DNA of 64,000 bases from a virus (IMGVR_UViG_3300037067_012456:40535-104534); one strand, 5' to 3'. Shown: positions 14,618-58,483, numbered from the stretch's first letter. Numbers and translations: made by a program. Notes: generated by a model not told the origin, from the sequence alone.

Positions 14618-14618
14618 A

Positions 14619-41405: not shown

Positions 41406-41457
41406 GAAGCAGCCCAAAATGCTTGATATTATTATAAAACTTGCTAGGAGATAGATT

Positions 41458-42180: not shown

Positions 42181-42193
42181 GAGGTAACTAACT

Positions 42194-43342: not shown

Positions 43343-43363
43343 TAATTTAGTAACAAAATAATT

Positions 43364-43393
43364 AAATACCCTTTGAAAAAAGGGTATTTTTTT
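43364..43393 (+). terminator. intrinsic terminator after the MCP gene
   Basis: aaatacccttt-gaaa-aaagggtattt followed by a T run. Confidence 0.88.
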
Positions 43394-43394
43394 A

Positions 43395-43424
43395 TTGACA
43401 AAAATACTATTTGATGCTACTAAT
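43395..43424 (+). promoter_or_regulatory. possible sigma70-like promoter for the endonuclease gene
   Basis: TTGACA-N17-TACTAA(T), preceded by TG. Confidence 0.45.
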
Positions 43425-43430
43425 GGATTT

Positions 43431-45116
43431 ATGAAGAAAAAAGAATGTAAATACTGTAATGCAACAGAAAATCTTGTTGAAGGAATTAGATTAGGTAAGA
43501 AGTTTTATTATCCTGTATGTATTGATTGTTTTTATTTATATCAACAGGATAAAACTTTAAAAAGAAAAAAAACTACATTAAAAAAATATGGTGTAGAAAA
43601 TGTATCCCAATCTGAGGATATTAAAAATAAAATAAAAAACACTTCTATGAGTGTTTATGGATTTTCCAATGCATCACAATCTTCTTTAATTAAAGAAAAA
43701 AGAGAAAAAACTAATATTGAGAGATATGGAGGAAAGACACCAGCTTCTAATAAAAAAGTTAGAGATAAAATGAAAAAAACATCTAAAGATAGATATGGTG
43801 TAGAAAATCCAATACAAAATACTGAAATAAAAAATAAAGCAATTATAACATTAATTAATAAGTATGGAGTTGATAATATATTTAAAAGTGAAGAATTTAA
43901 AGAATCTATGAGGATTCTGAATAGGGAAAAATATGGTGTTGATTTTTTTACACAAACTAATGAAATGAAAGAAAAGTCACAAGACACTATGTTAAAAAAC
44001 TATGGAGTTAAGTTTCATTCTCAAGATCCCACAATAAAAAAGAAAATGTGGACTACTTATAGAACTAATTATTGGGAAACATTTATAGTTACTTTAGCAC
44101 AAAAATATATAGAACCTTTATTTGATAAGGAACAATATATAACTAATAACAACTTTTTATTAAATAAATATAAATGTTTACGATGTGGAAATACTTTAGA
44201 CTTTGAATATTTAAATCCTCATAGAATAAATTGTATATGTACACAACATAGATCGTATTATGAAGATAATATAATAGATTGGTTAAAACTTAATAATATT
44301 TCTAATATTATTCCAAATAAAAAGTTTTATGAAAATGGAAAATTTAAGTATGAAATAGATATTTTTTTTCCTGAAAAAAATTTTGGTATAGATTTTTCTG
44401 GTATTTATTGGCATAGTGATAGGTATAAAGAAAAAAATTATCATCAAAATAAATACAAATATTTTAAAGAAAAAAATATAGAATTTATTCAAATTTTTGA
44501 AAATGAATGGGTTAATAAACAAGATATTGTAAAATCAATAATTCTGTCAAAGTTTGGATTAAATAAAAGAATATTTGCTAGAAAGTGTACTATAAAAGAA
44601 GTATCAACAAAAGATTACAAAGATTTCATGTTAAAAAATCATTTACAGGGATATATTCCAGCAAAAATTTTAATAGGATTATATTTTGATGATATTCTTA
44701 TTTGTGCTGCATCTTTTAGTAAATATAGGTATATTAAAGAAGATTCATATGAAATAATACGTTTTGCAACTAAATTAGGTTATACAGTAATTGGAGGATT
44801 TGGCAAAATATTGAAATATTTTGAACTTAAGTATTGCCCGAATAAATTAATAAGTTTTATTGATGTAAGGTATTTTAATGGTAAAAGTTATATTGATTTT
44901 ACTTTTGAAAAGTTAACAAATCCTAATTATTTTTATTTTAAAATAAAAGATGAAAGTTTAACACTTCATAGTAGAATTAAATTTCAAAAACATAAATTAT
45001 CTTCTTTATTAGAAAATTTTGATGATAATTTATCTGAATTAGAAAACATGAAAAATAATGGTTTTGTACGAATATTTGATGCTGGTAATCTAAAAATGAT
45101 TAAACTTTATATTTAA
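43431..45116 (+). CDS. putative homing endonuclease (Zn finger, YGV repeats, Vsr/PD-(D/E)XK-like domain, Hef-like C-terminal domain)
   Basis: KKYGVEN repeats; EIDIF...GIYWHS; ARKC..NHLQG..IFDAG; ATG 43431 preferred as start. Confidence 0.8.
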   Translation: MKKKECKYCNATENLVEGIRLGKKFYYPVCIDCFYLYQQDKTLKRKKTTLKKYGVENVSQSEDIKNKIKNTSMSVYGFSNASQSSLIKEKREKTNIERYGGKTPASNKKVRDKMKKTSKDRYGVENPIQNTEIKNKAIITLINKYGVDNIFKSEEFKESMRILNREKYGVDFFTQTNEMKEKSQDTMLKNYGVKFHSQDPTIKKKMWTTYRTNYWETFIVTLAQKYIEPLFDKEQYITNNNFLLNKYKCLRCGNTLDFEYLNPHRINCICTQHRSYYEDNIIDWLKLNNISNIIPNKKFYENGKFKYEIDIFFPEKNFGIDFSGIYWHSDRYKEKNYHQNKYKYFKEKNIEFIQIFENEWVNKQDIVKSIILSKFGLNKRIFARKCTIKEVSTKDYKDFMLKNHLQGYIPAKILIGLYFDDILICAASFSKYRYIKEDSYEIIRFATKLGYTVIGGFGKILKYFELKYCPNKLISFIDVRYFNGKSYIDFTFEKLTNPNYFYFKIKDESLTLHSRIKFQKHKLSSLLENFDDNLSELENMKNNGFVRIFDAGNLKMIKLYI

Positions 45117-45230
45117 GTATCTTTTTTTCTGTCTTTTTTGAAAAAATACTTGACTATATTACATAGTTATATATTTATTAATATATATGAAATTTTAATT
45201 ATTAATAATTATATTAAATGAGATAAATTT

Positions 45231-46112
45231 TTGAGAAGACCTCCCTTATTAACCTTTTTAACATTTAATAGGCTAGGAAATACTATACCTAGTCTTAGAT
45301 CATTACTAGAATCTACCGATGATTTTGAATTATATCTATTAGATAATTTTTCTCAAGATAAAACATGGGATTATTTGAATTCAGTATCTGATCCTAGAAT
45401 AGTATATAGAGAAAGATCTGATAAGAATATTGGTGGAGTTTTATTAAATAAAGCATTAATTCATAGGAAACCAGATCAAGATTGGTTTAATTATGAATAT
45501 GATTGTTTTTTAATAACAATAAAGTTTATATCAATTTTTCAAGATATATTTGATAATGAATCAAATATTGCTGGTTTATGTGGTAATCTTCCTGGTATTA
45601 TTCCTAAAGGTGTTGATGATACTCAACTTATTAAAGTAAATAATTATAGAATTTATAAATCTCATATAATGGGTTATTGTATGGGTATGAGATATGAAGT
45701 TATGAATAAGTTAGGATATCTTGATGAAGTAACATATGGAATGGATATGGATCTTTATTATAGAATTGATCGTATGTTACACATGAAAACAGGATATTCT
45801 TTAGATGCTCATTGTTTAATGGTAGGAATACCTACATGTGACATGTGTACTGCTGGGCAAAAAATTTGTTTAGGAGATAAAATTTGTACTAAATATTATT
45901 CAAGGGTTTTAAATGATTTTTATTCACAATATAATCCAGATATGGTTAAACGAGTAAAGGAAAGTATCAATAAAGATAAACTTTATTGTGATACTATTTA
46001 TAACCCGAATACTTCTTTAACAATAGAAGAGCAAAAAGTAGCAAAAGAGAATATAGATAATTTTTCTAATATTTATAATAAATTTTTAAATACACTAAAA
46101 GAGAATATATGA
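45231..46112 (+). CDS. glycosyltransferase family 2
   Basis: LTFNR..., LLDNFSQD.T, LGYLDE..YG.D.D. Confidence 0.85.
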   Translation: MRRPPLLTFLTFNRLGNTIPSLRSLLESTDDFELYLLDNFSQDKTWDYLNSVSDPRIVYRERSDKNIGGVLLNKALIHRKPDQDWFNYEYDCFLITIKFISIFQDIFDNESNIAGLCGNLPGIIPKGVDDTQLIKVNNYRIYKSHIMGYCMGMRYEVMNKLGYLDEVTYGMDMDLYYRIDRMLHMKTGYSLDAHCLMVGIPTCDMCTAGQKICLGDKICTKYYSRVLNDFYSQYNPDMVKRVKESINKDKLYCDTIYNPNTSLTIEEQKVAKENIDNFSNIYNKFLNTLKENI

Positions 46113-47026
46113 GACCACCATTATTTACATTTTTAACGTTTAATAGATTAGGAAATACTTGTATTAGTTTAGAATCTGTATTACAAAGTCCAGATGATTT
46201 TGAAATGTATATTATAGATAATGGATCTAAAGATTTTACATGGGATTATTTAAATACTATTGATGATCCACGAATAAAAGATAGAAAAAGATTTGATAGT
46301 AACTTTGGAATAGCAGCATTAAATTACGCTCTCTCTTTTAGAAAAGAGGACCAAGATTGGGTAAATGTAGAACCAGATACCCATATACATAATAAAAATT
46401 TTATATCAGAATTTAAAAAAGCATCTGAATTTTATCCTGAATTTGGATATTTTTCTGGTATGCTCTATGGTGGTGATGTTCCACTTACTGTAATTTCTCA
46501 TGATTATGTTAAAACAATGGTAGATACTTATCCACAAACAGTAATTCAAAGAGGACAGTACAGAGTTTGGGATAGTGGTGTAGGAATGACGGGTTATTGT
46601 TTATATATTCCATCAAATGTGATGAATCAATTAATGTTTTTAGATGAAGTATCTTATGGAGCAGATGTTGATTTAAATTGTAGAATTATGAAGGGATTGA
46701 AAAAAAAGGCTGGATTTGTATTTAATATTGGATGTTCTATGATAGGAACAGATTGTAAAATCTGTTTATCATATGGAAATATTTGCCCCGGTCAAAATAT
46801 TTGTAATAAAATATATTCTAGAGTTACAAGTACTTTTATAGCAAAAAGAGGAACTTGGACAACTGATGTTATAAATCAAAGAATATCTGGTAAACTCCCA
46901 TTAAAATGTGATTCTATTTTTGGACAACAAATATCAGATAGTGATAAAGCACAAAGTTTAAAAAATATAGAAGAATTAAAGAATATTTATGATGAATATC
47001 TTAGAACAATGGGATATCAAAAATGA
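46109..47026 (+). CDS. glycosyltransferase family 2 (tandem paralogue)
   Basis: IIDNGSKD.T, N.G...LN, LDE..YG.DVD. Confidence 0.88.
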   Translation: MRPPLFTFLTFNRLGNTCISLESVLQSPDDFEMYIIDNGSKDFTWDYLNTIDDPRIKDRKRFDSNFGIAALNYALSFRKEDQDWVNVEPDTHIHNKNFISEFKKASEFYPEFGYFSGMLYGGDVPLTVISHDYVKTMVDTYPQTVIQRGQYRVWDSGVGMTGYCLYIPSNVMNQLMFLDEVSYGADVDLNCRIMKGLKKKAGFVFNIGCSMIGTDCKICLSYGNICPGQNICNKIYSRVTSTFIAKRGTWTTDVINQRISGKLPLKCDSIFGQQISDSDKAQSLKNIEELKNIYDEYLRTMGYQK

Positions 47027-47547
47027 AGTTGCACATTGGTTGCGGGTATCAACATAAAGATGGTTGGATTAATATAGATATAGAGAAATTTTCAAGTGTT
47101 GATATAGTTCATGATGCAAGAACTATATTTCCTTATTCAGACAATTCTATTGATTTTGTTTTTAATGAACATTTTATAGAACATATTTCGTTACAAGACG
47201 GCATTTCTTTTTTAAAAGAAATGTACAGAATTATTAAACCAAATGGAGTTATTAGAATAGCAGCACCTGATTTGGATGTTATTATTGATCAATTTGTAAA
47301 TGATTCTTGGAGAGATGATTTTAAAAAAGCACAAATTCCTTGTAATACTCGTTGTGAAATGTTGGACATGTCCATGAGGGGTTGGGGACATTTGTATTTA
47401 TATAACTATGAAGAATTAGAATATCGTCTTAAAAATAGTGGTTTTATAAACATATCACGAAAAGAATTATATAAAAGTGATTACCCAGAATTATGTAATC
47501 TAGAAACAAGATGGGCTTCTTTTTTAATTATTGAGGCGACAAAATGA
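47023..47547 (+). CDS. SAM-dependent methyltransferase (type 11-like)
   Basis: LHIGCG, GWINID, EHFIEH, RIIKPNG. Confidence 0.9.
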   Translation: MKLHIGCGYQHKDGWINIDIEKFSSVDIVHDARTIFPYSDNSIDFVFNEHFIEHISLQDGISFLKEMYRIIKPNGVIRIAAPDLDVIIDQFVNDSWRDDFKKAQIPCNTRCEMLDMSMRGWGHLYLYNYEELEYRLKNSGFINISRKELYKSDYPELCNLETRWASFLIIEATK

Positions 47548-48245
47548 AACTTGGAATAATGCAACCTTATTTTCTTCCATATATTGGATATTGGCAACTC
47601 ATAAATTCTGTTGATGAATTTGTAATTTATGATAATATTAAATATACTAAAAAAGGTTGGATCAATAGAAATAGAATTTTATGTAACGGTAAAGATGAGT
47701 ATATTACTATACCTTTAAAAAAAGATTCAGATTATTTGGATGTAAAAGATAGATACATTGCATATTCTTGGGATGATGAAAAAAATAAAATATTAAACAA
47801 AATAAGACAATACTATAAAAAATCTCCACAATTTTCTCAAGGATATACTCTTTTTGAAACTTGCATATCTTGCGAAGAAAGAAATTTATTTAAATTTATT
47901 CTAAATTCAGTTGAATTGATAAAAACATATCTCGATATTAAAACTCCACTTATAATCTCTTCAACAATTCCTTCAGATCAAAATCTACAATCTGAAGATA
48001 AAGTATTAGACATTTGTAAAGTAAGAAAAGCAACTACTTACATAAATGCCAGTGGTGGTGTAGAATTATATGATAAAAATAATTTCACCAAAGAAGGAAT
48101 GGAACTCAATTTTATTAAATCAAACCAAATTACTTATAAACAATTTGATAATGAATTTATTCCTTGGCTCTCTATTTTAGATGTTTTGATGTTTAATTCA
48201 AAAGAAGAAATACAATCAATGCTAAATAATTATACTTTATTTTAG
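47544..48245 (+). CDS. wbqC: WbqC-like protein (putative aminoacyl/glycine transferase)
   Basis: IMQPYFLPYIGYWQL, WINRNRI, LSILDVL. Confidence 0.92.
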   Translation: MKLGIMQPYFLPYIGYWQLINSVDEFVIYDNIKYTKKGWINRNRILCNGKDEYITIPLKKDSDYLDVKDRYIAYSWDDEKNKILNKIRQYYKKSPQFSQGYTLFETCISCEERNLFKFILNSVELIKTYLDIKTPLIISSTIPSDQNLQSEDKVLDICKVRKATTYINASGGVELYDKNNFTKEGMELNFIKSNQITYKQFDNEFIPWLSILDVLMFNSKEEIQSMLNNYTLF

Positions 48246-48255
48246 GATATATGAA

Positions 48256-49209
48256 ATGTTTAGATGGAAAAAATTAGGACAAATATTCTCACCACAAACT
48301 GTAAACGATGGTATTGATAGACCTTGGATGAAGGAATATTCTCAATGCACAAGTACAGTATTTTTCGATAAATTTATACGAATATACTTTTCTTGTAGAC
48401 CATTCAAAGATAAAGAAGGAGCTGTATCATATACGGCTTTTGTTGATGTTGATAAAAATGATTTAACAAAAATTATAAATATAGCAAAAGAACCCATTCT
48501 TCCTTTAGGTAGGCTAGGTACTTTTGATGAACATGCTGTTTATCCTACTTGTGTTATTAAGCGAAAAGATGACTTTGCTTTATATTACGCTGGTTGGTAC
48601 AGATGCAAGTCTGTCCCATTTAATACATCAATTGGATTGGCAATCAGTAATGATGGTGCCTCATTTAAGCGGATTGGAGATGGGCCAATTATGGCTCCAA
48701 ATATTAATGAACCTTTCGTTATTAGTGGCCCAAAAGTCAGAAGATTTAAAGAATATTGGTACATGTATTATTTAGCTGGAACTGAGTGGATATCAAACAA
48801 TGGAAGCCCCGAAATAATATATAAAATAAAAATGGCTTCTTCAGAGGATGGGATAGAATGGGAAAGAGTGGGTCAAAATATTATACCTGATATTTTAGAA
48901 CCAGAGGAGTGTCAAGCAGGTCCTGATGTATTTTATCATGAAGGAAAGTATCATATGTATTTTGCATACAGATACGGATTGGATTTTCGTGGAAATAATA
49001 GAGGTTACAGAATAGGATATGCCTATTCCTATGATTTATATAACTGGACAAGGGATGATGCTAATGTTGGAATAGGTTATTCTGAATCTGGTTGGGATAG
49101 TCAAATGCATCATTATCCTCATATATTTAAACATAATGATAAATTATATATGTTATATAATGGAAATGATTTTGGTAGATATGGATTTGGATTAGCAGTA
49201 GCAGAATAA
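48256..49209 (+). CDS. five-bladed beta-propeller glycosidase-like protein
   Basis: WKKLG, GTFDE, IGLAISNDG, SEDGIEW, YNGNDFG. Confidence 0.8.
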   Translation: MFRWKKLGQIFSPQTVNDGIDRPWMKEYSQCTSTVFFDKFIRIYFSCRPFKDKEGAVSYTAFVDVDKNDLTKIINIAKEPILPLGRLGTFDEHAVYPTCVIKRKDDFALYYAGWYRCKSVPFNTSIGLAISNDGASFKRIGDGPIMAPNINEPFVISGPKVRRFKEYWYMYYLAGTEWISNNGSPEIIYKIKMASSEDGIEWERVGQNIIPDILEPEECQAGPDVFYHEGKYHMYFAYRYGLDFRGNNRGYRIGYAYSYDLYNWTRDDANVGIGYSESGWDSQMHHYPHIFKHNDKLYMLYNGNDFGRYGFGLAVAE

Positions 49210-49661
49210 TGGATATTTCATATAAAATAAATAATTCTACTCAAAAAGATATCCATGATCATTTAGTTATTTGTGATACTTATTTTGATAATATTTTAAG
49301 TAGTAGAGTTAATTTAGATGAATTTTCAGAAAAAATTTATACCAAAGCTATTAGATTTGAAGCTTGGTATGAGAAAAAATTAATTGGATTAATTAGTGCT
49401 TATTTTACTAGTGATGTAATTGGATTTATTAATCATGTAGCTGTTTTTACTAGATTTCAAAGAAAAGGAATATCAAGAATTTTATTACAATCTTGTATAG
49501 ATTATGGTAAAAAGAATAATTATAAGTTTATCCATTTAGAAATAAATAGTAAAAATAAGAAAGCTATGGATTTATATAAATCATTTAATTTTGTAGTATT
49601 AGAAACGTCAGATGATAATATAAAAATGAGGAAAGATATAAGAAATGGAAAGAGATTATAA
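49209..49661 (+). CDS. GNAT acetyltransferase
   Basis: FQRKGIS; N.KA..LY...F. Confidence 0.9.
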   Translation: MDISYKINNSTQKDIHDHLVICDTYFDNILSSRVNLDEFSEKIYTKAIRFEAWYEKKLIGLISAYFTSDVIGFINHVAVFTRFQRKGISRILLQSCIDYGKKNNYKFIHLEINSKNKKAMDLYKSFNFVVLETSDDNIKMRKDIRNGKRL

Positions 49662-50382
49662 TATAGAATTTAAAGATACAAAAGATCATAAATATGCATA
49701 TAATTTTGATTTTGATATTATGCATCCATATATGATTAAATCTTTTATGCCTTTTTTTACAGGAAACAATGTTTTAGAATTAGGTAGTTTTAAAGGAGAA
49801 TTCACTAAATTATTATCCCCAATTTTCCCTCTTATTACTTGTATAGAAGCATCTAAAGAGGCTGTTTTAGAAGCAAGAGAAAAATTTTCATATCAAGTAA
49901 GAATACATAATAATACTTTTGAAGAAATAGAATTAATGGATACTTATTCTAATATCATAATGACTCATGTTCTTGAACACTTAGACAATCCAGTAGAAAT
50001 ACTTAAAAAAATAAATGATAAGTGGTTATCTGAAACAGGAAGATTGTTTTTAGTATGTCCAAATGGAAATGCTCCATCTAGACAAATTGCAGTTAAAATG
50101 GGATTAATTAGTCATAATACAGCAATTACTCCTGCAGAAAAAGAACATGGACATAGAATAACTTATACATTAGATACTCTAGAAAGAGGTGTAAAAGAAG
50201 CTGGATTAAAAATTATTCATAGATCTGGAATCTTTTTTAAAGCATTAGCTAATTTTCAATGGGATAGACTACTTCAAACAGATATTATATCTAAAGAATA
50301 TTTAGATGGGTGTTATGCATTAGGGCAGCAATATCCTGATCTTTGTTCTAGTATTTTTTTGGTTTGTGAAAAAGGAAATTAG
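49645..50382 (+). CDS. class I SAM-dependent methyltransferase
   Basis: VLELGSFKG, HVLEHLDNP. Confidence 0.9.
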   Translation: MERDYNIEFKDTKDHKYAYNFDFDIMHPYMIKSFMPFFTGNNVLELGSFKGEFTKLLSPIFPLITCIEASKEAVLEAREKFSYQVRIHNNTFEEIELMDTYSNIIMTHVLEHLDNPVEILKKINDKWLSETGRLFLVCPNGNAPSRQIAVKMGLISHNTAITPAEKEHGHRITYTLDTLERGVKEAGLKIIHRSGIFFKALANFQWDRLLQTDIISKEYLDGCYALGQQYPDLCSSIFLVCEKGN

Positions 50383-51189
50383 ATGAAAAAAGTATTATTA
50401 GTATCTTTAGTTTACCAAGAAATTGATTTAAATATGACTCAAATGGAATCTTTATTTCCTTTAATTGATTTATTAGATATAATAGTTCTTGAAAATTATA
50501 GTAGCACTACAGAAGAAAAAGGAATTCCTTATTTTTTAAATTTGCTTAAAGAAAAGAAAATAAGTCAATATATTCTTTTTGAAAAGAATATAGGTGGATC
50601 TGCTTTTTTTATGTTTTTTATTGACTTTTTAAATAATTTGAAAAATTATGATTATATTGTTATTACTGATGGAGATGTTCAGGCTTTAAATAATAATTGG
50701 TTGTTTGAATCCATAATGATTATAGATAAAGCTGAAAATGCTTTTTGTTGTGCAGTTGATTATAATACTGATAATTTACCTATAGAATCCTTTCCAGAAT
50801 CTAGAAATTGGATGCCAATTCCAATAGATCATGGATGGTATTTAGAATCAGCGACTGGTGGACATCTTTTGATGTTTAAATCAGAGAGTATAAATGATTT
50901 TGTAGTTTGGTTACAGGAGAATAAATTATTATTTATAGATGATAATATAAGAGGATTTTGTCACACAATCTTGAAAAAAAGATGGTATAAAACAAAATAC
51001 AGCAAATGTAAACACCTTGTATGGGATTTATATCATGATAAAACACATCCATATACAATAATGAAAATGAAACCAAGAGAAGAAATATTTAGAACAGTAA
51101 CTTTTTGTAATTATATTAAGCATAAATTAATAAATAATGAAATAATTTCCAATAAAATTGTATATAGAGAGGCTACTAGTGATAAATAA
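50383..51189 (+). CDS. GT-A fold glycosyltransferase-like protein
   Basis: IIVLENYS, FEKNIG, ITDGD (DxD). Confidence 0.65.
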   Translation: MKKVLLVSLVYQEIDLNMTQMESLFPLIDLLDIIVLENYSSTTEEKGIPYFLNLLKEKKISQYILFEKNIGGSAFFMFFIDFLNNLKNYDYIVITDGDVQALNNNWLFESIMIIDKAENAFCCAVDYNTDNLPIESFPESRNWMPIPIDHGWYLESATGGHLLMFKSESINDFVVWLQENKLLFIDDNIRGFCHTILKKRWYKTKYSKCKHLVWDLYHDKTHPYTIMKMKPREEIFRTVTFCNYIKHKLINNEIISNKIVYREATSDK

Positions 51190-52081
51190 AAGATTGGTTA
51201 TCTCTGAACCGGCAAGAGAATTTCATTTTACAAAATGGGAATTACCTGAATTTAAGAAACATTTTTCAAATGTGATTATGCATTATTATAATGAAGATCC
51301 TCAATTTACTCAAATAAAAAAAGATGATATTCTTTTTGTTTTTTTAAGTTTACCTCAATACCAAAATGTAGAATGTGATTTTAAATTTGGTATGATATAT
51401 CCGGGATTTGGATTTCACCCCTTACATCATTTAGATCAAAGAGCTAGAATGAAATCTGTTATTTCACAATATTCTGCTGTATTCATGAATGATGGACCCT
51501 TATGGGAAAGTTTTAAAGATCTCCCAAATGTTTATAATACCCCATATGCCGTTGATTCACATATGTTTAAAAAAACAAGAGTAAGAACTAAATTTAAAAG
51601 AATTATTCAAGTAGCAAATAATGTTGCATGGCAGTATAAAGGAAGACATATTTCAGAAGCAGCAATGAAATTAATGCCGTATGAATGGGAATTGTTTCCT
51701 GAAAATAATAATAAAATGGGAGCAATTCCTTTTAATGAATTACCTGATATTTATCAGAAAGCAGATGGATTTTTAAATCCAAATATGATCGGAGATCCTC
51801 CGGGATATTGGGTTGACTGTAAATATACAGGAACAACTTTAGAAGCAGGTCTAAGTGGTTGTATAATATTTTGGCACGATTGTATGAAGTTAGGTAATGA
51901 TTTTGAAACAGTTTTTGAAATATCTAGTAATCCAATAGAAATTGCAAAAAGAATACCAGAAATTATAAATTCAATAGATTTAGAAAAACATAGTTTATTA
52001 ACATCGCAAGAATTTTATGAAAGATGTAATATAAAAAGTTCAGTTGAGCATAAAATAAATACTATACAAAAATTTATTTAA
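51158..52081 (+). CDS. GT-B fold (GT4-like) glycosyltransferase
   Basis: PYAVD..F, KG, IYQKAD.F..P, LEAGLSG. Confidence 0.7.
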   Translation: MYIERLLVINKRLVISEPAREFHFTKWELPEFKKHFSNVIMHYYNEDPQFTQIKKDDILFVFLSLPQYQNVECDFKFGMIYPGFGFHPLHHLDQRARMKSVISQYSAVFMNDGPLWESFKDLPNVYNTPYAVDSHMFKKTRVRTKFKRIIQVANNVAWQYKGRHISEAAMKLMPYEWELFPENNNKMGAIPFNELPDIYQKADGFLNPNMIGDPPGYWVDCKYTGTTLEAGLSGCIIFWHDCMKLGNDFETVFEISSNPIEIAKRIPEIINSIDLEKHSLLTSQEFYERCNIKSSVEHKINTIQKFI

Positions 52082-52093
52082 TAGTAAAGTTAT

Positions 52094-53428
52094 ATGAAAA
52101 TATTGTTATTAAATCCTCCTAAAGAAAAAGAAATAACTTTTGCTGTATTAACAGATTATAATACAAAAGCAAGAAATAATAATCCTCCATTGGGTTTACT
52201 ATATCTTCATTCCTATTTATCACCATATCATAATGTTGATGTTGTTGATATGAGTGCAGAAGAACTTGGTATATTAAATATACATAATATACTTCTTAAA
52301 TATAAACCTGATATAGTTGGGATTACTTGTGTTATTTCTAAATGGCCAACAACAAAAGAATTATCTAGACAGATAAAAATATTTAATAAAGATATAATTA
52401 CTATTGTTGGTGGCGTAAATCCATCATTATATACATATGAAACTCTTCAATGTGAAGATATAGATTATGTTATTAGAGGATTTGGTCAAATTCCTTTATT
52501 AGAATTATGTAATGCTTTAGATAAAAAAGAAACTACTACTACAATAAAAAATTGTTGTACTAAAGAAACTTATAGATATCCTGAAAAAGGATGTTTTAAT
52601 TTTGAAGATATAGATAAATATCCTTTTCCTAATAGAAAGATTGTTCCAATTGATAATTATAATATGCCTTTTTCTCCTAAAAATCCAACTACATCTATGT
52701 TAACAAGTTTTGGATGTTTTCATAAATGTCATTTTTGTCAATGTAGGACATTTACTCCTATTGTAATAAGAAAACCAGAATATGTAATAGATGAATTAAA
52801 AGAAGTTAAAACTGATGGTATTAAATCTGTTATTTTTCAAGATGAGCTTTTTACTATGTCTAATAGACGAATAACTGATATTTGTACTCCAATGATAGAA
52901 AATAAAATAGATCTTAATTGGGCTATAAGAGCTAGAGCAACTCATTTAAAACAAGAATCATTGGATTTAATGAGACAAGCTGGTTGTTTTAATATTCATA
53001 TGGGTATAGAGTCGGGAACAGATAGGATATTGAAAAGAATGAATAAAAATATTACTGTTCCCCAAATAAAAGAATCTATAAAGGCAATAAAAAAAGCTGG
53101 GATGTCCTGTTCAGCAAGTTTTATGTTGGGTTATCCCGGAGAAACAAAAGAGGAGATACTAGAAACAATTTATTTTGCTGCAGAATTGGAATTAAATGTT
53201 TGTCAATTCTACATAACAATACCATCTCCGGGGACAGAGCTATATAAAGAATGGCAAGAAAGAACTGGATATAAAGGAGATGTATTTAGTCAATTTACAA
53301 TGAATCCCGATAGTATTGATCTTGATGGGAATATAGCTTCTGATCTATTTACAAGAGAAGAAATGAATGAATTTGTTCAGCTAGGGTTTTCTAAAACAAA
53401 TAATTTATATAAAATAAAAAATGATTAG
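52094..53428 (+). CDS. cobalamin-binding radical SAM enzyme (class B methyltransferase-like)
   Basis: PPLGLLYL, PDIVGI, VGG; CFHKCHFC; GIESG, GYPGET. Confidence 0.92.
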   Translation: MKILLLNPPKEKEITFAVLTDYNTKARNNNPPLGLLYLHSYLSPYHNVDVVDMSAEELGILNIHNILLKYKPDIVGITCVISKWPTTKELSRQIKIFNKDIITIVGGVNPSLYTYETLQCEDIDYVIRGFGQIPLLELCNALDKKETTTTIKNCCTKETYRYPEKGCFNFEDIDKYPFPNRKIVPIDNYNMPFSPKNPTTSMLTSFGCFHKCHFCQCRTFTPIVIRKPEYVIDELKEVKTDGIKSVIFQDELFTMSNRRITDICTPMIENKIDLNWAIRARATHLKQESLDLMRQAGCFNIHMGIESGTDRILKRMNKNITVPQIKESIKAIKKAGMSCSASFMLGYPGETKEEILETIYFAAELELNVCQFYITIPSPGTELYKEWQERTGYKGDVFSQFTMNPDSIDLDGNIASDLFTREEMNEFVQLGFSKTNNLYKIKND

Positions 53429-53437
53429 GTAAAATTA

Positions 53438-53992
53438 ATGACATCCTTTTATTCAAGAGAAGAATTAGAGTTATTAAAGTTTAAATCTTTAGGAGAAAAT
53501 GTTTTATTAAGTAGAAATGCTTCTATATATTCTCCAGAAAAAATTAATATTTCTAATAATGTTAGAATAGATGATTTTTGTATAATATCTGGTAATATTA
53601 ATATAGGTAATTATGTTCACATAGCTGCTGGATGTTATTTATTTGGAGAACATGGAATTATCTTAGAAGATTTTTCTGCAATTTCATCTCGAAGTGCTCT
53701 TTATAGTGGAACAGATGATTATACTGGGGAATTTTTAAGTAATCCAATGTGTCCCATACTATGTAGAAAAATAACAAAAGGACCTATTTTTTTAGGAAAG
53801 CATGTTTTAATAGGAACTGGAACAACAATTCTACCGGGAGTTTATATAGGAGAAGGAACTTCTGTAGGAGCGATGAGTTTAGTTAATAGATCTTTGAAAG
53901 AATGGAAGATTTATAAAGGAATACCCGCAAGAGAATATAAAGAAAGATTGCGAGGATGCTCTGAATTTGAAGAATTATTATTTAAAAAATAA
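53438..53992 (+). CDS. hexapeptide-repeat sugar acyltransferase (VioB-like)
   Basis: SFYS.EEL, NVRIDDFC, left-handed beta-helix repeats, GIPA. Confidence 0.85.
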   Translation: MTSFYSREELELLKFKSLGENVLLSRNASIYSPEKINISNNVRIDDFCIISGNINIGNYVHIAAGCYLFGEHGIILEDFSAISSRSALYSGTDDYTGEFLSNPMCPILCRKITKGPIFLGKHVLIGTGTTILPGVYIGEGTSVGAMSLVNRSLKEWKIYKGIPAREYKERLRGCSEFEELLFKK

Positions 53993-54012
53993 AATAACAT
54001 ATGGTATAACAC

Positions 54013-55128
54013 ATGGAAAAATTTGTATTTCCTATATTAATAACAAAACCTCTTATTCCAGACATTAATATATATTTTAAATATGTTAAAGATATTTTTG
54101 ATTCTAAAATGTTATCAAATAGTGGTAAATATCATTTAATTCTTGAAGATGATTTAAAATACATATTAAAAGTTAATAACTTATTAGTATTTAATAATGG
54201 TACTAATGCTTTAATGATAGCATTAAAGGGATTAAATTTAACTGGAGAAATTATTACAACTCCTTTTACTTTTCCAGCTACTCCACATGCCATTACTTGG
54301 AATGGATTAAAACCAATATTTTGTGATATTGATAATAAAACAATGAATATTGATGCTAATAAGATAGAATCTTATATAACTAAAGATACATCAGCTATTT
54401 TAGCTGTTCATACATTTGGTACTCCTTGTGATGTTATGAAAATAGAACAAATAGCTAAAGAACATAATTTAAAAGTTATATATGATAGTGCTCATGCTTT
54501 TATGACTGAAATAGATGGTGACGGAATTGGAAATTTTGGTGATGTTTCTATGTTTAGTTTCCATCCAACTAAATTGTTTCATACATCTGAGGGTGGTGCT
54601 TTAACTTTTAATAACGATACTTTAAAGGAAACTTATAAACTACTTAGAAATTTTGGGATAGTTTTTAAAGATGGTACGGAATCCGTAGAATTAGATGGTA
54701 TTAATGGTAAAATGAGTGAAATACAAGCTGCTATGGGATTGTGTGTTTTAGATATAGTTGATAAAGAAAGAAGAAAAAGAGAATCTATTTCTAAAAGATA
54801 TATTCATAATTTATCGGTAAAAAAAGGAATATCTTTCCAAAAGTTAGAATCTAATATAACTCCAAGTTATCAATATTTTCCGATAAGAATAAATAAAGAA
54901 GAATTTGGAGAATCTAGAGATGATGTATACAATAGATTAAGAGAATATAATGTTTTTGCTAGAAAATATTTTAATCCTTTATGTATTGATTATGATCATT
55001 ATAAAGATACAAAAGGTGATTTTTCTATAGCTAGAAAGGTTGTTACAGAAGTATTATGTTTACCTTTTTATGGTGATTTAACTATGAATGATATTAATAA
55101 AATATGTTCTATTATTTTGGGTGAATAA
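54013..55128 (+). CDS. DegT/DnrJ family NDP-4-keto-6-deoxysugar aminotransferase (VioA-like)
   Basis: NGT.AL, TTPFTF, YDSAHAF, SFHPTKLF.T.EGG, GINGKMSE. Confidence 0.93.
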   Translation: MEKFVFPILITKPLIPDINIYFKYVKDIFDSKMLSNSGKYHLILEDDLKYILKVNNLLVFNNGTNALMIALKGLNLTGEIITTPFTFPATPHAITWNGLKPIFCDIDNKTMNIDANKIESYITKDTSAILAVHTFGTPCDVMKIEQIAKEHNLKVIYDSAHAFMTEIDGDGIGNFGDVSMFSFHPTKLFHTSEGGALTFNNDTLKETYKLLRNFGIVFKDGTESVELDGINGKMSEIQAAMGLCVLDIVDKERRKRESISKRYIHNLSVKKGISFQKLESNITPSYQYFPIRINKEEFGESRDDVYNRLREYNVFARKYFNPLCIDYDHYKDTKGDFSIARKVVTEVLCLPFYGDLTMNDINKICSIILGE

Positions 55129-55632
55129 ATGTTAATTTGTTTAGATGAATCAATTGTATTAAGAAGAATAACTGAATTAGATACCGATTTTGTTTTATCT
55201 TTATTAAATAATGAATCTATTAAAAATAATTTTCCTAGAACTAAAGATATTACATTAAAAGATCATGAAACCTTTTTAAATAAATTATCTAATAAAAATC
55301 TTTATTGGATAATTGAAAAAGATAAAATACCAGTTGGTACTATATCTTTATATGATATTAATTATGATCATAAAAGAGCTGAATGGGGAAGATTAATGAT
55401 TCTTCCTAAATATAGGAATCAAGATATCGGAAAACTTGCTTTAAAAGAAATTATTAATTATTCTTTTTTAAAGTTAAAATTACATAAAATTTATTGTTAT
55501 GTAATGGAAAATAATGATATAGCATTAAAGATGTATCAAGATTTAGGATTTAAAATAAAAGGTATATTAAAAGATCATTATTATATAAATAATAAATATA
55601 TAGATTATTATTTATTGGAATTACTTAATTAA
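55129..55632 (+). CDS. RimJ/PseH-like GNAT N-acetyltransferase
   Basis: PVGTISL..I......AEWG; N..A..MY..LGF. Confidence 0.85.
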   Translation: MLICLDESIVLRRITELDTDFVLSLLNNESIKNNFPRTKDITLKDHETFLNKLSNKNLYWIIEKDKIPVGTISLYDINYDHKRAEWGRLMILPKYRNQDIGKLALKEIINYSFLKLKLHKIYCYVMENNDIALKMYQDLGFKIKGILKDHYYINNKYIDYYLLELLN

Positions 55633-56346
55633 TGTATTATCTGTTTTTAATAAATTTAAAATATCTTCAATAGAAAAAATATTATTATTTTTATATAATT
55701 TTTCATAAATAGTTTTAACAAATTTATATTCATTTTTATAATCTACAGTAAAATGTATATTTTTAAATGGATTATTTATTCCACAAGGAAATGTTATATA
55801 TTTATATTTTTGAGGATTTCTTTTAATAAAAGTAGTAACATGTTCTAAATGACCCTTTTTTTCTTCTAATGATCTAATTTTATCAATTTCTCTATTACTA
55901 TCATGTAAAGCAGTAGATCTTATTATTTCTACTCCTATTCCTATTGGAATTTCTCCCATATCCATTAAATCACATTTTTCAAAAAGAGCCTCTTTTATCA
56001 TATTATCTGCATGATAAGGATCAATTAATGGATTATCTCCTGTAATTCTAAGAATATAATCAGGATTATATAATTTTTCAATCATAAGGAATCTTTCAAG
56101 AACATTTTCTTCAGATCCTGTAATTACAGTACAATTCATTTTATAGGCTAAATCTACTATTACTTCATTTTTTTTGGTATAACTTGTTGCAATAATTATA
56201 TTATTAATATTTTTAATTGCTTTAACTCGATTTATTACATGAGCTAATAGAGGTTTACCGCAGATGGGGAGCATTGATTTCCCTGGTAATCTAGATGATC
56301 CCATTCTGGCTTGTATTACTGCAGTAACCTTTAGTTTTTCATTCAT
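55621..56346 (-). CDS. spsF: SpsF-like cytidylyltransferase
   Basis: IQARMGSSRLPGK, GSEENVL.RF, RITGDNP, EHVT, TVD. Confidence 0.88.
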   Translation of the reverse strand: MNEKLKVTAVIQARMGSSRLPGKSMLPICGKPLLAHVINRVKAIKNINNIIIATSYTKKNEVIVDLAYKMNCTVITGSEENVLERFLMIEKLYNPDYILRITGDNPLIDPYHADNMIKEALFEKCDLMDMGEIPIGIGVEIIRSTALHDSNREIDKIRSLEEKKGHLEHVTTFIKRNPQKYKYITFPCGINNPFKNIHFTVDYKNEYKFVKTIYEKLYKNNNIFSIEDILNLLKTDNTLIK

Positions 56347-56500
56347 TTATATCACAATCTACAATAAATTCATTCTTATTTTTGGTCACAGGAACCAATA
56401 TTATATACTGTTTAGTTCGTCCACAACACACAAAAGTATCTTCCTGACCCCTATTTAGTTTACATTCCATACAATTCTGTAATGTTTTAATATTATTCAT
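56339..56500 (-). CDS. 53-aa Cys-rich protein, not in the ORF track (MNNIKTLQNCMECK...)
   Basis: Manual translation; AAGG upstream; stop overlaps the spsF start. Confidence 0.55.
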   Translation of the reverse strand: MNNIKTLQNCMECKLNRGQEDTFVCCGRTKQYIILVPVTKNKNEFIVDCDINE

Positions 56501-56656
56501 AATATTGCCTTTTTATACAAAAATTTATTTATCTGTATAAAAAATAACATATTATAAGGAATTTTTAATGTTCTATTATATTAAATTTATCTTAAATTTA
56601 TAAGAAAAAACACCATTATTATAATAAATACTATATTTAAACAAATGAAATAGGAG

Positions 56657-57517
56657 ATGAATATGAGTAACATTAATTTAACACCAGATCAGGTTCAAAA
56701 ATTAGGAAATCATTTACAAAAAGAGGCAGAAAACGACTTTGAAATACGTCCAATTGTTCCTCAAACAACTGTAAGTGAGGCTCTTAAACGTGTTATTCCT
56801 GATGAACCTATGGAAACAGGAAAACAAAGTTTAAAAGATAGGATTAAAGATTTGGAAGCAGAATACAAGGGATCTACAGTATCTGTACCAAAAGATTCTT
56901 TAAAGAAATCCTATTTAGACGAAATGGGTAGAGATACCTTTTATGTAAAAAATATTTCTGGAAATCACGTAGCTATTTCAGAATTAGAGTTTACTATTAA
57001 AAAAGGAGCAGTAGAAAATCTGCTTGAAGTAGCTTCTTTAGAAGATTGTTATTCTTCAAGAGATTTAAAAAAGTTAATGAATGGATATGCTGGAGACTCT
57101 CCTGCATTGAAAAGAATTACAGAAGAAGAATATGCTGATGAAATGGAAAAGGCTATTATATCAAAAAAGAAAATTGAAGTAGTTAGACAACAAGAATCAA
57201 TTAAACAATATCAAAACCAAAATGGACAAAATCAGAATAATCAAAACCAAAATAATCCTTTTCAGAATCCAACTCCTAGAGTTGATAAAGCAGCAAAGCT
57301 TAGTTATAAAGTTATTGGGCAACTTGAGAAATTACGTTTGTCAACTGCAGTTGATCCAGAAGATTCAAAATTTGGAATTAATTCAGCTCAGTTTATTCAA
57401 TGGATGTGGCAAGAAGTTCTTTCTGATGAAGAACTAGATTATATTCTTGGTGATCCAATGGCAACAAAATTTCCAGATGTTAAATATGCTGCTATAGAAA
57501 AGAAGACTATAAAATAA
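56657..57517 (+). CDS. hypothetical protein
   Basis: AGGAG RBS; QNN-rich linker. Confidence 0.75.
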   Translation: MNMSNINLTPDQVQKLGNHLQKEAENDFEIRPIVPQTTVSEALKRVIPDEPMETGKQSLKDRIKDLEAEYKGSTVSVPKDSLKKSYLDEMGRDTFYVKNISGNHVAISELEFTIKKGAVENLLEVASLEDCYSSRDLKKLMNGYAGDSPALKRITEEEYADEMEKAIISKKKIEVVRQQESIKQYQNQNGQNQNNQNQNNPFQNPTPRVDKAAKLSYKVIGQLEKLRLSTAVDPEDSKFGINSAQFIQWMWQEVLSDEELDYILGDPMATKFPDVKYAAIEKKTIK

Positions 57518-57527
57518 GAAGGACTAA

Positions 57528-58463
57528 ATGTTACGATTAGTTGATATTATTGAACGAACACAAAACTATATTTTATTCTATACTTCAGAAATAACAGAAG
57601 CAGACGCTACTGTTTATGTTGTGTTTGATACATCTACAGGAGCATCATATAGTGTTGGTTTAACAGAAGATTATTATGCTTGGAGAGCAACATCTATAAC
57701 AAGTACTGGAGTTGATGGTGCTTATTATATAATTAGTAATTCTAATATATATCCTTCTTATTCAGAAACTATTACTAATTATCTTTATTTAAAACCAGCA
57801 TTACTTACAACACTTACTTATGCTGAATATAATATTCTTCAAAGTGTTTTAATTCGTTTAGATTTGGTTAGAAGAAGATTTCCAAATCCAGGTTTCGTTG
57901 TTAATTCAACTAATAGTATTGGTCAAAATGGTAATGTATCATTTTCTGGTGGTTATGAAAAGAAAATGACTGTATATGAAATATCAATGATGATGGCATC
58001 TACTATTGTAGAAGTAAATGCTACATCTCCTACAACATCATTTTGGCCAACATATACTTCTGATATAGCTACAAGTCCTTATATTGCTTATTCTAGTAAT
58101 ACTACAAGTATTCCTTATGATATGGTTGAATTGGCTTCACTGGGTACATTTATTAGATGTTTATGTGCTTGGGGTATTCTTGAAGTTGATTTAAGTTTTC
58201 AAGCAAGCGATTCTGGATTACAAATTACCTGGGATAGAGCAACTCATGCTAAAGGTTGGTATGATTCTCTTTTGAAAGATTATACTGATCAAAAACTATT
58301 ATTCAAAATGAATTATGCTAATCATGCAGGAGTTGGTGTAGGTACATATGCTTTTCCTTCTGTATCTATTTTTGGAACATTATTAAATAATGTTACAAGT
58401 GGAGGAACTTTAGCTTATACTTCTATTATGGGTCTAAGTGGAAGAGGCAATGTACAAATGTAA
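57528..58463 (+). CDS. virion structural protein, possible head-tail adaptor
   Basis: Position after the capsid region; EVNATSP and F..SDSG patterns. Confidence 0.45.
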   Translation: MLRLVDIIERTQNYILFYTSEITEADATVYVVFDTSTGASYSVGLTEDYYAWRATSITSTGVDGAYYIISNSNIYPSYSETITNYLYLKPALLTTLTYAEYNILQSVLIRLDLVRRRFPNPGFVVNSTNSIGQNGNVSFSGGYEKKMTVYEISMMMASTIVEVNATSPTTSFWPTYTSDIATSPYIAYSSNTTSIPYDMVELASLGTFIRCLCAWGILEVDLSFQASDSGLQITWDRATHAKGWYDSLLKDYTDQKLLFKMNYANHAGVGVGTYAFPSVSIFGTLLNNVTSGGTLAYTSIMGLSGRGNVQM

Positions 58464-58483
58464 AATAACAGGAGTTATATGAT

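Follow-up and report, generated by a model that had tools for sequence, protein, structure and literature searches.

Analysis of a 64,000-nucleotide stretch of viral DNA (the window) reveals a run of 14 tightly packed genes downstream of a capsid gene (positions 45231–56346, about 11 kb), which we regard, with a probability of about 0.85, as an accessory, horizontally acquired glycan-synthesis island of a jumbo phage. The phage is uncultured, low in GC and comes from groundwater and landfill; its identity as a phage rests on matches of the major capsid protein (MCP), portal and head protease, and the phage contig is 104.5 kb long with an estimated completeness of 38%. ORF calling places 13 of the 14 genes on the plus strand, with all frames intact and stops and starts overlapping, and Pfam and Foldseek searches identify four glycosyltransferases (GTs), the other ten genes encoding tailoring or activating enzymes. 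An unbroken row of fourteen genes from carbohydrate-tailoring families greatly exceeds what chance would give, and every element listed in a preliminary description of this DNA was found in its place, as was the predominantly shared orientation. The arrangement is that of a phage-borne glycan (LPS-like) island, with a cluster of GT and tailoring genes, a plastic site and no export genes of its own. The island and its borders contain the following features.

42194–43342, plus strand: major capsid protein, left border of the slot (phrog_2522 major head protein, 9.7e-53)
43364–43389, no strand: putative terminator-like hairpin directly 3′ of the MCP gene (11-bp stem, then a T run; consensus match)
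43395–45116, plus strand: HNH-type homing endonuclease between the MCP gene and the island (phrog_3339 1.1e-112, DUF7487)
45231–46112, plus strand: GT2-family glycosyltransferase a, soluble (PF00535 6e-6, above cutoff; no transmembrane segment)
46109–47026, plus strand: GT2-family glycosyltransferase b, tandem paralog (PF00535 1.3e-6)
47023–47547, plus strand: small class-I SAM methyltransferase, Methyltransf_11 (PF08241 2.1e-9)
47544–48245, plus strand: WbqC-family protein, core cassette (PF08889 1.6e-69, 234 bits)
48256–49209, plus strand: putative five-bladed-propeller-like GH130/GH43/GH32 protein, core cassette (weak Pfam, NCBIfam and PDB matches)
49209–49661, plus strand: GNAT N-acetyltransferase 1, core cassette (PF00583 7.6e-14)
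49645–50382, plus strand: SAM methyltransferase, Methyltransf_23, core cassette (PF13489 8.3e-15)
50383–51189, plus strand: GT-A fold glycosyltransferase with DGD motif (no Pfam match; predicted structure and Foldseek)
51179–52081, plus strand: GT-B (GT4-like) glycosyltransferase (no Pfam match; alignment A2, predicted structure and Foldseek)
52094–53428, plus strand: radical SAM enzyme with B12-binding domain (PF04055 3.4e-26, PF02310 2.2e-14)
53438–53992, plus strand: left-handed beta-helix (hexapeptide) acyltransferase (PF00132 1.5e-16)
54013–55128, plus strand: DegT-family nucleotide-sugar aminotransferase, DesI/perosamine-synthase-like (PF01041 6.8e-91)
55129–55632, plus strand: GNAT N-acetyltransferase 2, PseH family (TIGR03585 PseH, 105 bits, above the 93.1-bit cutoff)
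55621–56346, minus strand: cytidylyltransferase (CTP_transf_3; SpsF/KdsB-like), the sole minus-strand island gene (PF02348 8.9e-33)
56657–58463 (56657–57517 and 57528–58463), plus strand: two conserved backbone genes, right border of the slot (homologs after the MCP slot in relatives)

The glycosyltransferases are of two kinds, a pair of GT2 paralogs that are 41% identical to each other, and one GT-A and one GT-B protein detected by fold only. GT2b, the one of the four for which cultured-phage relatives were sought, has only six further homologs in a set of 5.8 billion clustered proteins and no match in 50,697 phage records, mycobacteriophages included (tblastn, E 1e-3). Residues D96-G97-D98 of the GT-A protein are invariant in alignment A1, and its model (pLDDT 82) matches SpsA, TarP, GtrB and hyaluronan synthases in Foldseek (prob 1.00 for each), the likeness to GtrB being confined to the catalytic domain; distant relatives adjoin WbqC and the propeller in two viral contigs (L058 and L062) and WbqC in a third (L059), which stops there. 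The GT-B gene, with a likely GTG start at 51179, encodes a protein with many viral GT1-type neighbours, and its model (pLDDT 92.7) aligns with PglA, BshA and a B. anthracis GT4 at TM 0.65–0.74; the GT4-fold neighbours include the small-molecule transferases BshA, SenB and tetrahydrobiopterin glucosyltransferase. Hydrophobic segments of transmembrane grade are absent from all island proteins (the largest 19-residue Kyte-Doolittle mean is 1.38), and Pfam scans of the island gave no family for lipid-carrier priming or for a flippase, polymerase or transporter. The preliminary description was thus right that membrane GTs, flippase and polymerase are missing and that the island enzymes, which bring no transport machinery with them, work in the cytoplasm. 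A serotype-converting module (Gtr, Oac, Wzy-beta) was rejected, the island having neither transmembrane segments nor such Pfam families.

The tailoring enzymes vary in how closely they can be placed. The structure search gave no solved relative of WbqC, and no literature was found on WbqC chemistry. The propeller scores below cutoff in all Pfam models (NCBIfam beta-1,2-mannobiose phosphorylase 3.6e-16; PDB sequence 3.6e-5) and has no sequence match in cultured phages; to judge from its sequence it may be a hydrolase, phosphorylase or transferase. The radical SAM enzyme, for which all NCBIfam matches are below cutoff and no relative was present in the viral contigs searched, has AprD4 as its nearest solved structure (6fd2, 1.3e-21) and would be expected to carry out sugar C-methylation or deoxygenation. 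The hexapeptide enzyme matches the NeuD/PglB/VioB family at 6e-17 (62 bits, below the cutoff of 161). Two models match the DegT protein, both below cutoff, DesI (1.8e-83, the best NCBIfam match) and PseC (1e-62; 212 bits against 423.5), and its best solved relatives are DesI (PDB 2po3, 2.3e-54) and perosamine synthases, which suggests a C4 aminotransferase of the DesI/VioA/Per group, the regiochemistry being predicted from these relatives. GNAT 2 matches PseH by sequence (PDB 4xpk, 6.4e-14), yet spermidine acetyltransferases score better. The cytidylyltransferase is closest to PDB 6oew (5.3e-24), followed by KdsB structures, and falls below the cutoffs of the KdsB and PseF models (30 bits for PseF, cutoff 205.7).

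The MCP is 34% identical to that of Virus Rctr197k and 30% to that of Bacillus phage G, and has 15 metagenomic relatives at 71–93%. Synteny was compared among MCP relatives (71–87% amino acid identity) whose contigs extend past the capsid gene, and all seven show the same order, with the MCP gene followed by a slot of 0.2–3 kb and then by homologs of the genes at 56657 and 57528 (L006, L007, L008, L014, L016, L017 and L018), and lack the island. The slot cargo differs among these contigs and includes homing endonucleases and DNA-methylase pieces; homologs of the HNH endonuclease are present in L004, L010, L011 and L016 and missing from other relatives, and the L010/L011 contigs, which stop short of the next backbone gene, have an HNH endonuclease and a cation-efflux gene after the MCP gene. 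There is no GT2 gene in the contigs of five relatives (372 kb). The genes at 56657, 57528 and 59770 form a conserved backbone of the lineage, for which family searches gave no matches, and those at 56657 and 57528 have no match in cultured phages; of the earlier statement that the island lies between the capsid gene and later structural genes, the capsid side stands, and the structural role of the downstream genes is putative. Since the capsid gene is followed by a hot spot for cargo, the position of the island is uninformative on function.

A core of five genes (DegT, WbqC, propeller, GNAT and methyltransferase) recurs in bacterial surface-polysaccharide loci, mostly in Bacteroidota, and the DegT-WbqC-propeller-methyltransferase combination was found in Bacteroidota and five other bacterial phyla. 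The four-gene cassette WbqC-propeller-GNAT-methyltransferase is also present, with its order kept, in 17 viral contigs at about 57–71% identity (31–43% for the GNAT), and occurs in unrelated T4-like phages. Individually, WbqC is 56–64% identical in 18 other viral contigs; the propeller is 57–70% identical in 17, always adjoining WbqC, and 34–64% over all 12 bacterial MAG copies (43–64% in the nearer ones); and the Methyltransf_23 protein is 63–73% identical in phage and the nearest Bacteroidota copies and lower in distant MAG copies. GNAT 1 occupies this place in the majority of phage copies and in part of the bacterial ones, and WbqC-GNAT fusion proteins are present in the Atlas. In a tree of the propeller, the window copy lies in a clade (support 99/95) with Bacteroidota and T4-like phage copies. 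In the bacterial cassettes, such as that of a Chitinophaga-like MAG (L043, of the ABC-transporter type), the five families are common to both, four core genes are in the same order, and in nearer copies WbqC, propeller and methyltransferase are 43–64% identical to those of the island. The bacterial locus also has Wzt (with Wzt_C), Acyl_transf_3 and soluble GT2/GT4 proteins of its own, and a full-length DegT, 33–43% identical to that of the island, adjoins WbqC, whereas the phage has no transporter and its DegT gene lies at a distance of 6 kb.

The enzyme set suggests a modified amino sugar. Candidates for the N-acyl transfer of a viosamine/perosamine-type pathway are WbqC, the hexapeptide enzyme (below the VioB-family cutoff) and the two GNATs, and of an N-acylated 4-amino-4,6-dideoxyhexose pathway the nucleotidyltransferase and NDP-hexose 4,6-dehydratase steps are missing on the contig. 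PF00483 and PF16363 have no match on the 104.5 kb contig (about 38% of the genome; controls were positive in 14/14 genomes), nor has the NeuB-family synthase PF03102, and no lipid-carrier or export gene was found; host precursors would therefore be needed. We propose that the infecting phage takes NDP-4-keto-6-deoxyhexose from the host, this starting point being chosen because the contig has no dehydratase or hexose-1-P nucleotidyltransferase, and that a phage enzyme would aminate it at C4. The amine would then be acylated by WbqC and GNAT, and/or by the hexapeptide or PseH-like enzyme, the amino sugar could be methylated or deoxygenated by island enzymes, and the four cytoplasmic transferases would assemble a short glycan containing it directly on a cytoplasmic acceptor. 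The pseudaminic/legionaminic pathway (PseB, C, H, G, I, F; SpsC-G in B. subtilis) likewise has an adjacent aminotransferase, PseH-family GNAT and CTP_transf_3. However, its PseB-type dehydratase and NeuB/PseI synthase have no counterpart on the phage contig, the island aminotransferase matches DesI with a higher score than PseC, and for PseC and PseF the superfamilies agree with the island enzymes but the scores are below the equivalog cutoffs.

Three targets for such a glycan are considered, the virion, the host surface and DNA, here in falling order of likelihood. Giant viruses have amino-sugar pathways for fibril glycans, and in the viosamine/bacillosamine clusters of mimivirus a DegT-type 4-aminotransferase, an N-acetyltransferase and GTs decorate the particle, with the dehydratase step included; by description the enzyme set is similar, but it belongs to a eukaryotic-virus lineage and has the dehydratase. 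Our leading guess, at somewhat less than even odds, is that the acceptor is a virion protein, as in these viruses and in mycobacteriophages. This would fit a GT set that is self-contained, without a priming or export gene, and an island that is co-oriented with the head/late gene block (portal and head protease genes upstream of the MCP gene) with no integrase seen. [quoted passage not shown] The mycobacteriophage system resembles the present one in its tandem soluble GTs and methyltransferase, its lytic tailed phage and its cytoplasmic action, and in being found in some phages and missing from relatives. It differs in that glycosylated virions are known there, while the present island is known from its genes, which would also provide a modified amino sugar of its own; in the GT2b search the two are unrelated in sequence. 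The host of the present phage is probably Gram-negative.

Several points count against a virion acceptor: the terminator-like hairpin separates the MCP gene from the island; the MCP C-terminus has the same length and type in island-less relatives, with no extension or Ser/Thr tract; GT2b has no detectable cultured-phage relatives; the slot readily accumulates cargo; the homologs in bacteria work on polysaccharide that is exported; and in a T4-like carrier (97% complete) the four-gene core is at least 45 kb from the sheath, capsid and portal genes. A complex virion glycan coat, as first proposed, still leads, but the two arguments by which it was preferred do not discriminate: position fails because the slot is a variable cargo site and a strong terminator-like hairpin follows the MCP gene, and the lack of membrane parts does not speak against O-antigen conversion, as export by the host could serve.

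The last point leads to a possible but less likely target, the host envelope, in which soluble transferases would build or cap an undecaprenyl-linked glycan with the new sugar at the cytoplasmic face, and a host ABC transporter and ligase would export it, so that over a long infection the cell surface would change and competing phages, or progeny meeting infected cells, would be kept from adsorbing. In ABC-transporter-type polysaccharide pathways the transferases are soluble or peripheral, and because the bacterial counterpart lies in a Wzt/Wzt_C locus with soluble GT2/GT4 proteins, the phage could feed host export. The GT-A model also resembles TarP, a soluble prophage enzyme by which wall teichoic acid is altered ahead of its export, and the distance of the T4-like cassette from virion genes fits equally here. 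Against this, the island encodes no membrane protein at all, nor a priming transferase, ligase or transporter; genes that share the orientation of the late, structural ones would be badly timed for exclusion; and known serotype converters manage with fewer enzymes than four GTs and a full tailoring set. Also counting against it, we know of no lytic phage with experimentally shown host-envelope remodelling of this kind. As accessory cargo in a plastic slot, the island has parallels in pelagimyophages and cyanomyoviruses, for whose GT-rich islands the authors favour host-surface modification (PMC7029224, PMC12801897).

It is rather unlikely that the genes have another or no phage-specific role, as passengers of homing-endonuclease traffic or by acting on a lipid, a soluble metabolite or a cytoplasmic protein of the host. 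Unrelated cargo in the slot of relatives, the incomplete pathway on the contig and the small-molecule transferases near the GT-B fold would agree with this. However, the 14 frames are intact and tightly packed, the composition is fully ameliorated to that of the phage (GC3 about 0.1, as in the backbone), the island and both flanks are contiguous at 100% identity in groundwater-run and landfill-run contigs from different studies, and the cassette is kept as a unit across many phages, which together indicate selection for function. DNA hypermodification, in which the glycan would sit on a modified base and protect against restriction/CRISPR as in T-even phages and complex DNA glycans, is improbable: the island enzymes are cytoplasmic and soluble, the phage has many nucleic-acid-related accessory genes and multi-sugar DNA modifications can be built by phage GT sets (Pyle 2024, as cited in PMC12619734), but PF00303 (the thymidylate-synthase-family hydroxymethylase) is missing from the 104.5 kb contig and from the partial contigs of five relatives (372 kb), Pfam scans match no island protein to the T4 alpha- or beta-glucosyltransferase families, the replication module is at least 25 kb away, the bacterial homologs are polysaccharide genes, and, as weak evidence, short-read assemblies of four runs span the region without anomalies.

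Marine T4-like islands (P-SSM2, S-SCSM2R and pelagimyophages) likewise combine many soluble GTs with nucleotide-sugar tailoring genes; they are non-syntenic, without export genes and sometimes inside the structural region (PMC7029224). The present phage differs in its phage G/Rctr197k-like capsid lineage and its groundwater and landfill habitat, and its island in having no epimerase/dehydratase or KdsA and in a propeller and GT2b without sequence match to any cultured phage; the WbqC-propeller cassette and the B12-domain radical SAM enzyme are absent from the descriptions in PMC12801897 and PMC7029224. Cyanomyovirus islands do have a DegT/perosamine-type aminotransferase, GH130-type phosphorylase, KdsB-type cytidylyltransferase and radical SAM enzyme (PMC12801897). 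The earlier view, by which it would be unusual for a phage to make a rare sugar itself, was therefore overstated, comparable islands having already been published: pelagimyophages carry GT-rich islands (a ‘host recognition cluster’) within the structural region (PMC7029224), and among the 22 such genes of cyanomyovirus S-SCSM2R are 13 for GTs, together with those for KdsA/KdsB, a perosamine-type aminotransferase and a GH130 phosphorylase (PMC12801897).

Fourteen close-packed open reading frames, many with overlapping stops and starts and 13 of them on the + strand, make up a glycan island at 45231–56346. The enzyme families named in the preliminary description are borne out by Pfam, apart from two reading frames without a Pfam match (50383–51189 and 51179–52081), whose structures were modelled from alignments of few homologs. 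Its count of four glycosyltransferase-like genes is right, with two assigned to GT2 by Pfam and one each to GT-A and GT-B by fold, as is its view that there is no membrane glycosyltransferase: a hydrophobic stretch of transmembrane grade is absent from all island proteins.

Features of the head region and the glycan island (window coordinates, strand, assignment)
21120 onwards, +: head genes, with portal (27318–30398), head protease (33808–34719) and major capsid protein (42194–43342)
45231–46112 and 46109–47026, +: two GT2 glycosyltransferases (Pfam), GT2a and GT2b, tandem paralogs 41% identical
47023–47547, +: Methyltransf_11 (Pfam)
47544–48245, +: WbqC (Pfam, 1.6e-69)
48256–49209, +: GH130/43/32-like propeller (Pfam, weak)
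49209–49661, +: first GNAT (Pfam)
49645–50382, +: Methyltransf_23 (Pfam)
50383–51189, +: GT-A fold (model pLDDT 82, invariant DGD; matches SpsA, TarP and hyaluronan synthases)
51179–52081, +: GT-B/GT4 fold (model pLDDT 93; matches PglA and BshA)
52094–53428, +: B12-binding and Radical_SAM enzyme (Pfam)
53438–53992, +: hexapeptide transferase (Pfam)
54013–55128, +: DegT (Pfam, 6.8e-91)
55129–55632, +: second GNAT (Pfam)
55621–56346, -: CTP_transf_3 cytidylyltransferase (Pfam)

The closest relatives of these enzymes give some indication of the chemistry. The DegT aminotransferase is nearest to DesI (PDB 2po3, 2.3e-54) and also resembles perosamine synthases, which suggests that it aminates an NDP-4-keto-6-deoxyhexose at C4. 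The second GNAT scores 105 bits, above the 93.1 of the curated PseH cutoff, and the nearest solved structure to the cytidylyltransferase is the uncharacterised cytidylyltransferase 6oew, followed by KdsB. AprD4, a diol dehydratase acting on amino sugars, is the nearest relative of the radical SAM enzyme, which carries a B12-binding domain of the class B methylase kind, a combination that suggests either C-methylation or deoxygenation; neither this enzyme nor the GT-B protein has relatives that we could find in IMG/VR. WbqC we take to be linked to the N-acetylglycyl-viosamine O-antigen of E. coli O121; a literature search gave nothing on its function, and to our knowledge there is no known reaction for it or for the propeller, which makes the module that the two belong to a defined target for biochemistry. 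The island matches the pseudaminic-acid and viosamine pathways each only in part.

The location of the island behind the capsid gene is best understood by comparison with relatives. Fifteen IMG/VR contigs encode capsids 71–93% identical to the one in the window, and in all of those that reach past this gene it is followed, after a gap of 0.2–3 kb, by homologs of the backbone genes starting at 56657 and 57528, with the homolog of the gene at 59770 next in order where the contigs extend far enough (it was undetected in relative L016). Synteny in relatives, which the preliminary description had named as a check, is not found: the island genes are absent from this slot in every relative with sequence past the capsid gene. 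The gap instead holds LAGLIDADG, HNH or HTH-LAGLIDADG endonucleases and pieces of DNA methylases, and in the window phage an HNH endonuclease (43395–45116) together with the island; a strong terminator-like hairpin stands right after the capsid gene. These comparisons mark the island as accessory and its site as a hot spot for cargo. The adjacency of such islands to a capsid gene can be an accident of a homing-endonuclease hot spot, and position is therefore not evidence of function. No GT2 gene is present on the contigs of five relatives (372 kb in total). The GC3 of the island (~0.1) equals that of the backbone, so that it is either long resident or derived from an equally AT-rich donor, and a search for flanking direct or inverted repeats marking an insertion gave only AT-rich chance matches.

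Several further observations concern this part of the genome. The slot is a homing-endonuclease hot spot across the lineage, holding HNH, LAGLIDADG or multi-HTH LAGLIDADG genes in capsid relatives L004, L006/L018, L008, L014 and L016. Relative L010 has a cation-efflux transporter (CDF, ZT_dimer; 13496–14425) after the capsid gene and an HNH endonuclease, at the place taken by the glycan island in the window, and the same gene is present in L011 (capsids of both 79% identical), both contigs stopping short of the next backbone gene. In L016 (capsid 74% identical) a lone PseC-like DegT gene (13551–14699) lies two genes past the slot and is followed by a DNA methylase; its product scores 395 bits, just short of the 423.5-bit PseC equivalog cutoff. 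Sugar-aminotransferase genes have thus entered this lineage on more than one occasion, and not at a single site. A second endonuclease-like gene of the window (DUF559/Vsr-like, 58484–59458) lies between the conserved genes at 57528 and 59492, and tblastn finds it in no relative. The downstream backbone genes have no Pfam, PHROG, NCBIfam or cultured-phage match, and their Atlas model is poor. An 11-mer found upstream of both 45231 and 56657 was rejected as a late promoter (35 found, 35.6 expected by chance), and a sigma-70 promoter scan scored below shuffled sequences.

One part of the island recurs elsewhere. WbqC, the propeller, the first GNAT and Methyltransf_23 (47544–50382), which we refer to as the cassette, keep this order in a further 17 viral contigs (GC 28–32%), with identities of 57–71% for three of the proteins and 31–43% for the GNAT. 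These contigs are T4-like, since they match Gp23 and not the capsid of the window, and two or more unrelated phage lineages carry this part; the propeller was not found in any cultured phage. The larger island of the T4-like carriers includes two GT1 genes, several GT2 genes, an SDR dehydratase/epimerase, a TylF O-methyltransferase and a short DegT-like gene, and in a 97%-complete carrier of 158 kb it lies at ~58–79 kb, with sheath, capsid and portal genes at 124, 151 and 158 kb. Fusions of WbqC with a GNAT are also known and occur often in viral records, suggesting that WbqC and the acetyltransferase carry out consecutive steps. Distant relatives of the GT-A protein adjoin WbqC and the propeller in two contigs (L058 and L062) and WbqC in a third (L059), which stops there. 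The closest cultured phage to the T4-like carriers is Flavobacterium phage vB_FspM_immuto and not a pelagiphage, and their identification as pelagimyophages was rejected.

The ESM Atlas neighbours of the WbqC protein at 47544–48245 include a cluster of 66 WbqC-GNAT fusions (383 aa), many in tailed-phage records. Just upstream of WbqC in the T4-like contigs (L019–L036) is a conserved reading frame of ~210 residues (e.g. L030 9367–9990) that matches only the first 70–90 residues of DegT-type aminotransferases, at a place that in bacteria is taken by a full-length DegT; it may represent either a remnant or a novel small protein. The genome of an uncultured huge phage (L072, LR756500.1; 462 kb, 22% GC) encodes a DegT and a cytidylyltransferase 43% and 37% identical to those of the window; these genes (15001–16053 and 25523–25846) are 10 kb apart and may belong to another huge-phage glycan island.

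The cassette is also bacterial. Propeller homologs 34–64% identical occur in 12 loci of metagenome-assembled genomes (MAGs), and in nine of these DegT, WbqC and the methyltransferase adjoin it, the rest being short contigs or missing one gene. The best matches (53–64%) are in Bacteroidota, and the other carriers are Glaciecola, Verrucomicrobia, betaproteobacterial, Chloroflexia and Levyibacteriota genomes. Full-length DegT copies linked to the cassette are 33–43% identical to the window DegT. Around the cassette of a Chitinophaga-like MAG lie genes for a Wzt ABC-transporter ATPase that has a Wzt_C domain, for GT2 and GT4 enzymes, for an FkbM methyltransferase and for Acyl_transf_3; this is an ABC-type surface-polysaccharide locus. 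In the propeller tree the window copy falls in a clade with 99/95 support that mixes copies from T4-like phages with copies from Bacteroidota, indicating repeated exchange. DegT, WbqC, propeller, GNAT and methyltransferase travel together, as a compact module, between phages and the polysaccharide loci of bacteria. The clade and the relatives suggest a Bacteroidota gene pool, and perhaps a Bacteroidota host, for a jumbo phage lineage that is otherwise unplaced; we infer that the host is probably Gram-negative.

The island holds a soluble set for nucleotide-sugar amination, N-acylation, methylation, possibly deoxygenation, and CMP activation of some acid sugar or phosphate, as well as for four or five glycosyl transfers. 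A hexose-1-P nucleotidyltransferase, a 4,6-dehydratase and a NeuB synthase are all absent from the 104.5-kb contig (~38% of the genome), and on present evidence the pathway would therefore start from host intermediates. NDP-4-keto-6-deoxyhexose would be taken from the host, and the product, assembled in the cytoplasm, would be a short glycan with an N-acylated, methylated 4-amino-4,6-dideoxyhexose. Virion proteins rank first as acceptor, at somewhat below an even chance, because the set is self-contained, it lies in the late, co-oriented block, and demonstrations in lytic viruses are limited to virion and DNA acceptors (mycobacteriophages, as cited in PMC11600133 and PMC12619734). The glycan coat on the virion envisaged in the preliminary description may still hold, but the arguments offered for it do not establish it, the capsid-side position being that of a cargo slot. 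Remodelling of a host polysaccharide, a close second if itself doubtful, draws on the bacterial cassette homologs, which feed an ABC-type pathway with soluble transferases, and is the reading preferred for similar islands by authors working on cyanophages and pelagimyophages (PMC12801897, PMC7029224). Glycosylation of DNA is very unlikely, there being no hydroxymethylase on the window contig or on those of five relatives. Returning to the virion, we put at roughly 0.3 the probability of the full reading: that a tailed phage, probably of a Gram-negative (Bacteroidota-type) host, makes for itself a rare sugar, an N-acylated, methylated 4-amino-4,6-dideoxyhexose, through WbqC, a GH130-like propeller, GNAT and methyltransferase together with a B12-domain radical SAM enzyme, and that four soluble transferases coat virion proteins with the glycan so formed.

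If this reading is true, it would give the first example, beyond actinophages and giant viruses, of a virion glycan that a virus supplies for itself, and the cassette would be a marker of virion glycosylation for many aquatic phages of the T4-like kind; a glycan proven on the virion would extend virion glycosylation into a new region of phage diversity. We know of no large glycan-gene island of a big environmental phage whose role has been settled by experiment. Large aquatic phages are already known to carry islands rich in glycosyltransferases and sugar-tailoring genes in their plastic regions (PMC12801897, PMC7029224), and the published gene lists overlap this one by category; the present island differs in phage lineage and habitat, both new, and in a well-delimited cassette without known chemistry. 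A search with GT2b found no homology to the mycobacteriophage system.

The window takes up the final 64 kb of a contig of 104,534 bases (GC ~25%), which CheckV places at 38% complete, implying a jumbo phage of roughly 270 kb. A minus-strand replication module (window 1–20951 and the 40 kb upstream) encodes RNR with an intein, SbcCD, DnaB and primase with inteins, RecA and RNA ligase. The major capsid protein matches phrog_2522 (1e-52) and is only distantly related to those of cultured phages (34% identity to Rctr197k, 30% to Bacillus phage G). The whole region is present at 100% identity in contigs of one groundwater run and one landfill run, a single 16.9-kb metagenome contig covers 43108–59000, and identical fragments occur in two further runs; any one of the four runs may be the source of the window. 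Long pieces of 41000–59000 from groundwater (2022) and landfill (2018), in different studies, show zero differences, indicating a widespread and very uniform population, with the caveat that one run may be the contig source. No contig in these runs bridges the slot without the island, apparent joints having unreliable sides of 20–26 letters. This phage is unusually rich in selfish elements; RNR, DnaB helicase and primase each have an intein bearing a homing-endonuclease domain (window 7168–10719, L002 14184–16724 and L003 1216–3306). Finally, L002 begins with a gene (337–1425) for an ARPP-1 domain protein, associated with ARG and the rhodanese-phosphatase superfamily, and about 2 kb past it lies an RNA ligase gene (3670–4722), with a PHA02142 OB-fold domain.
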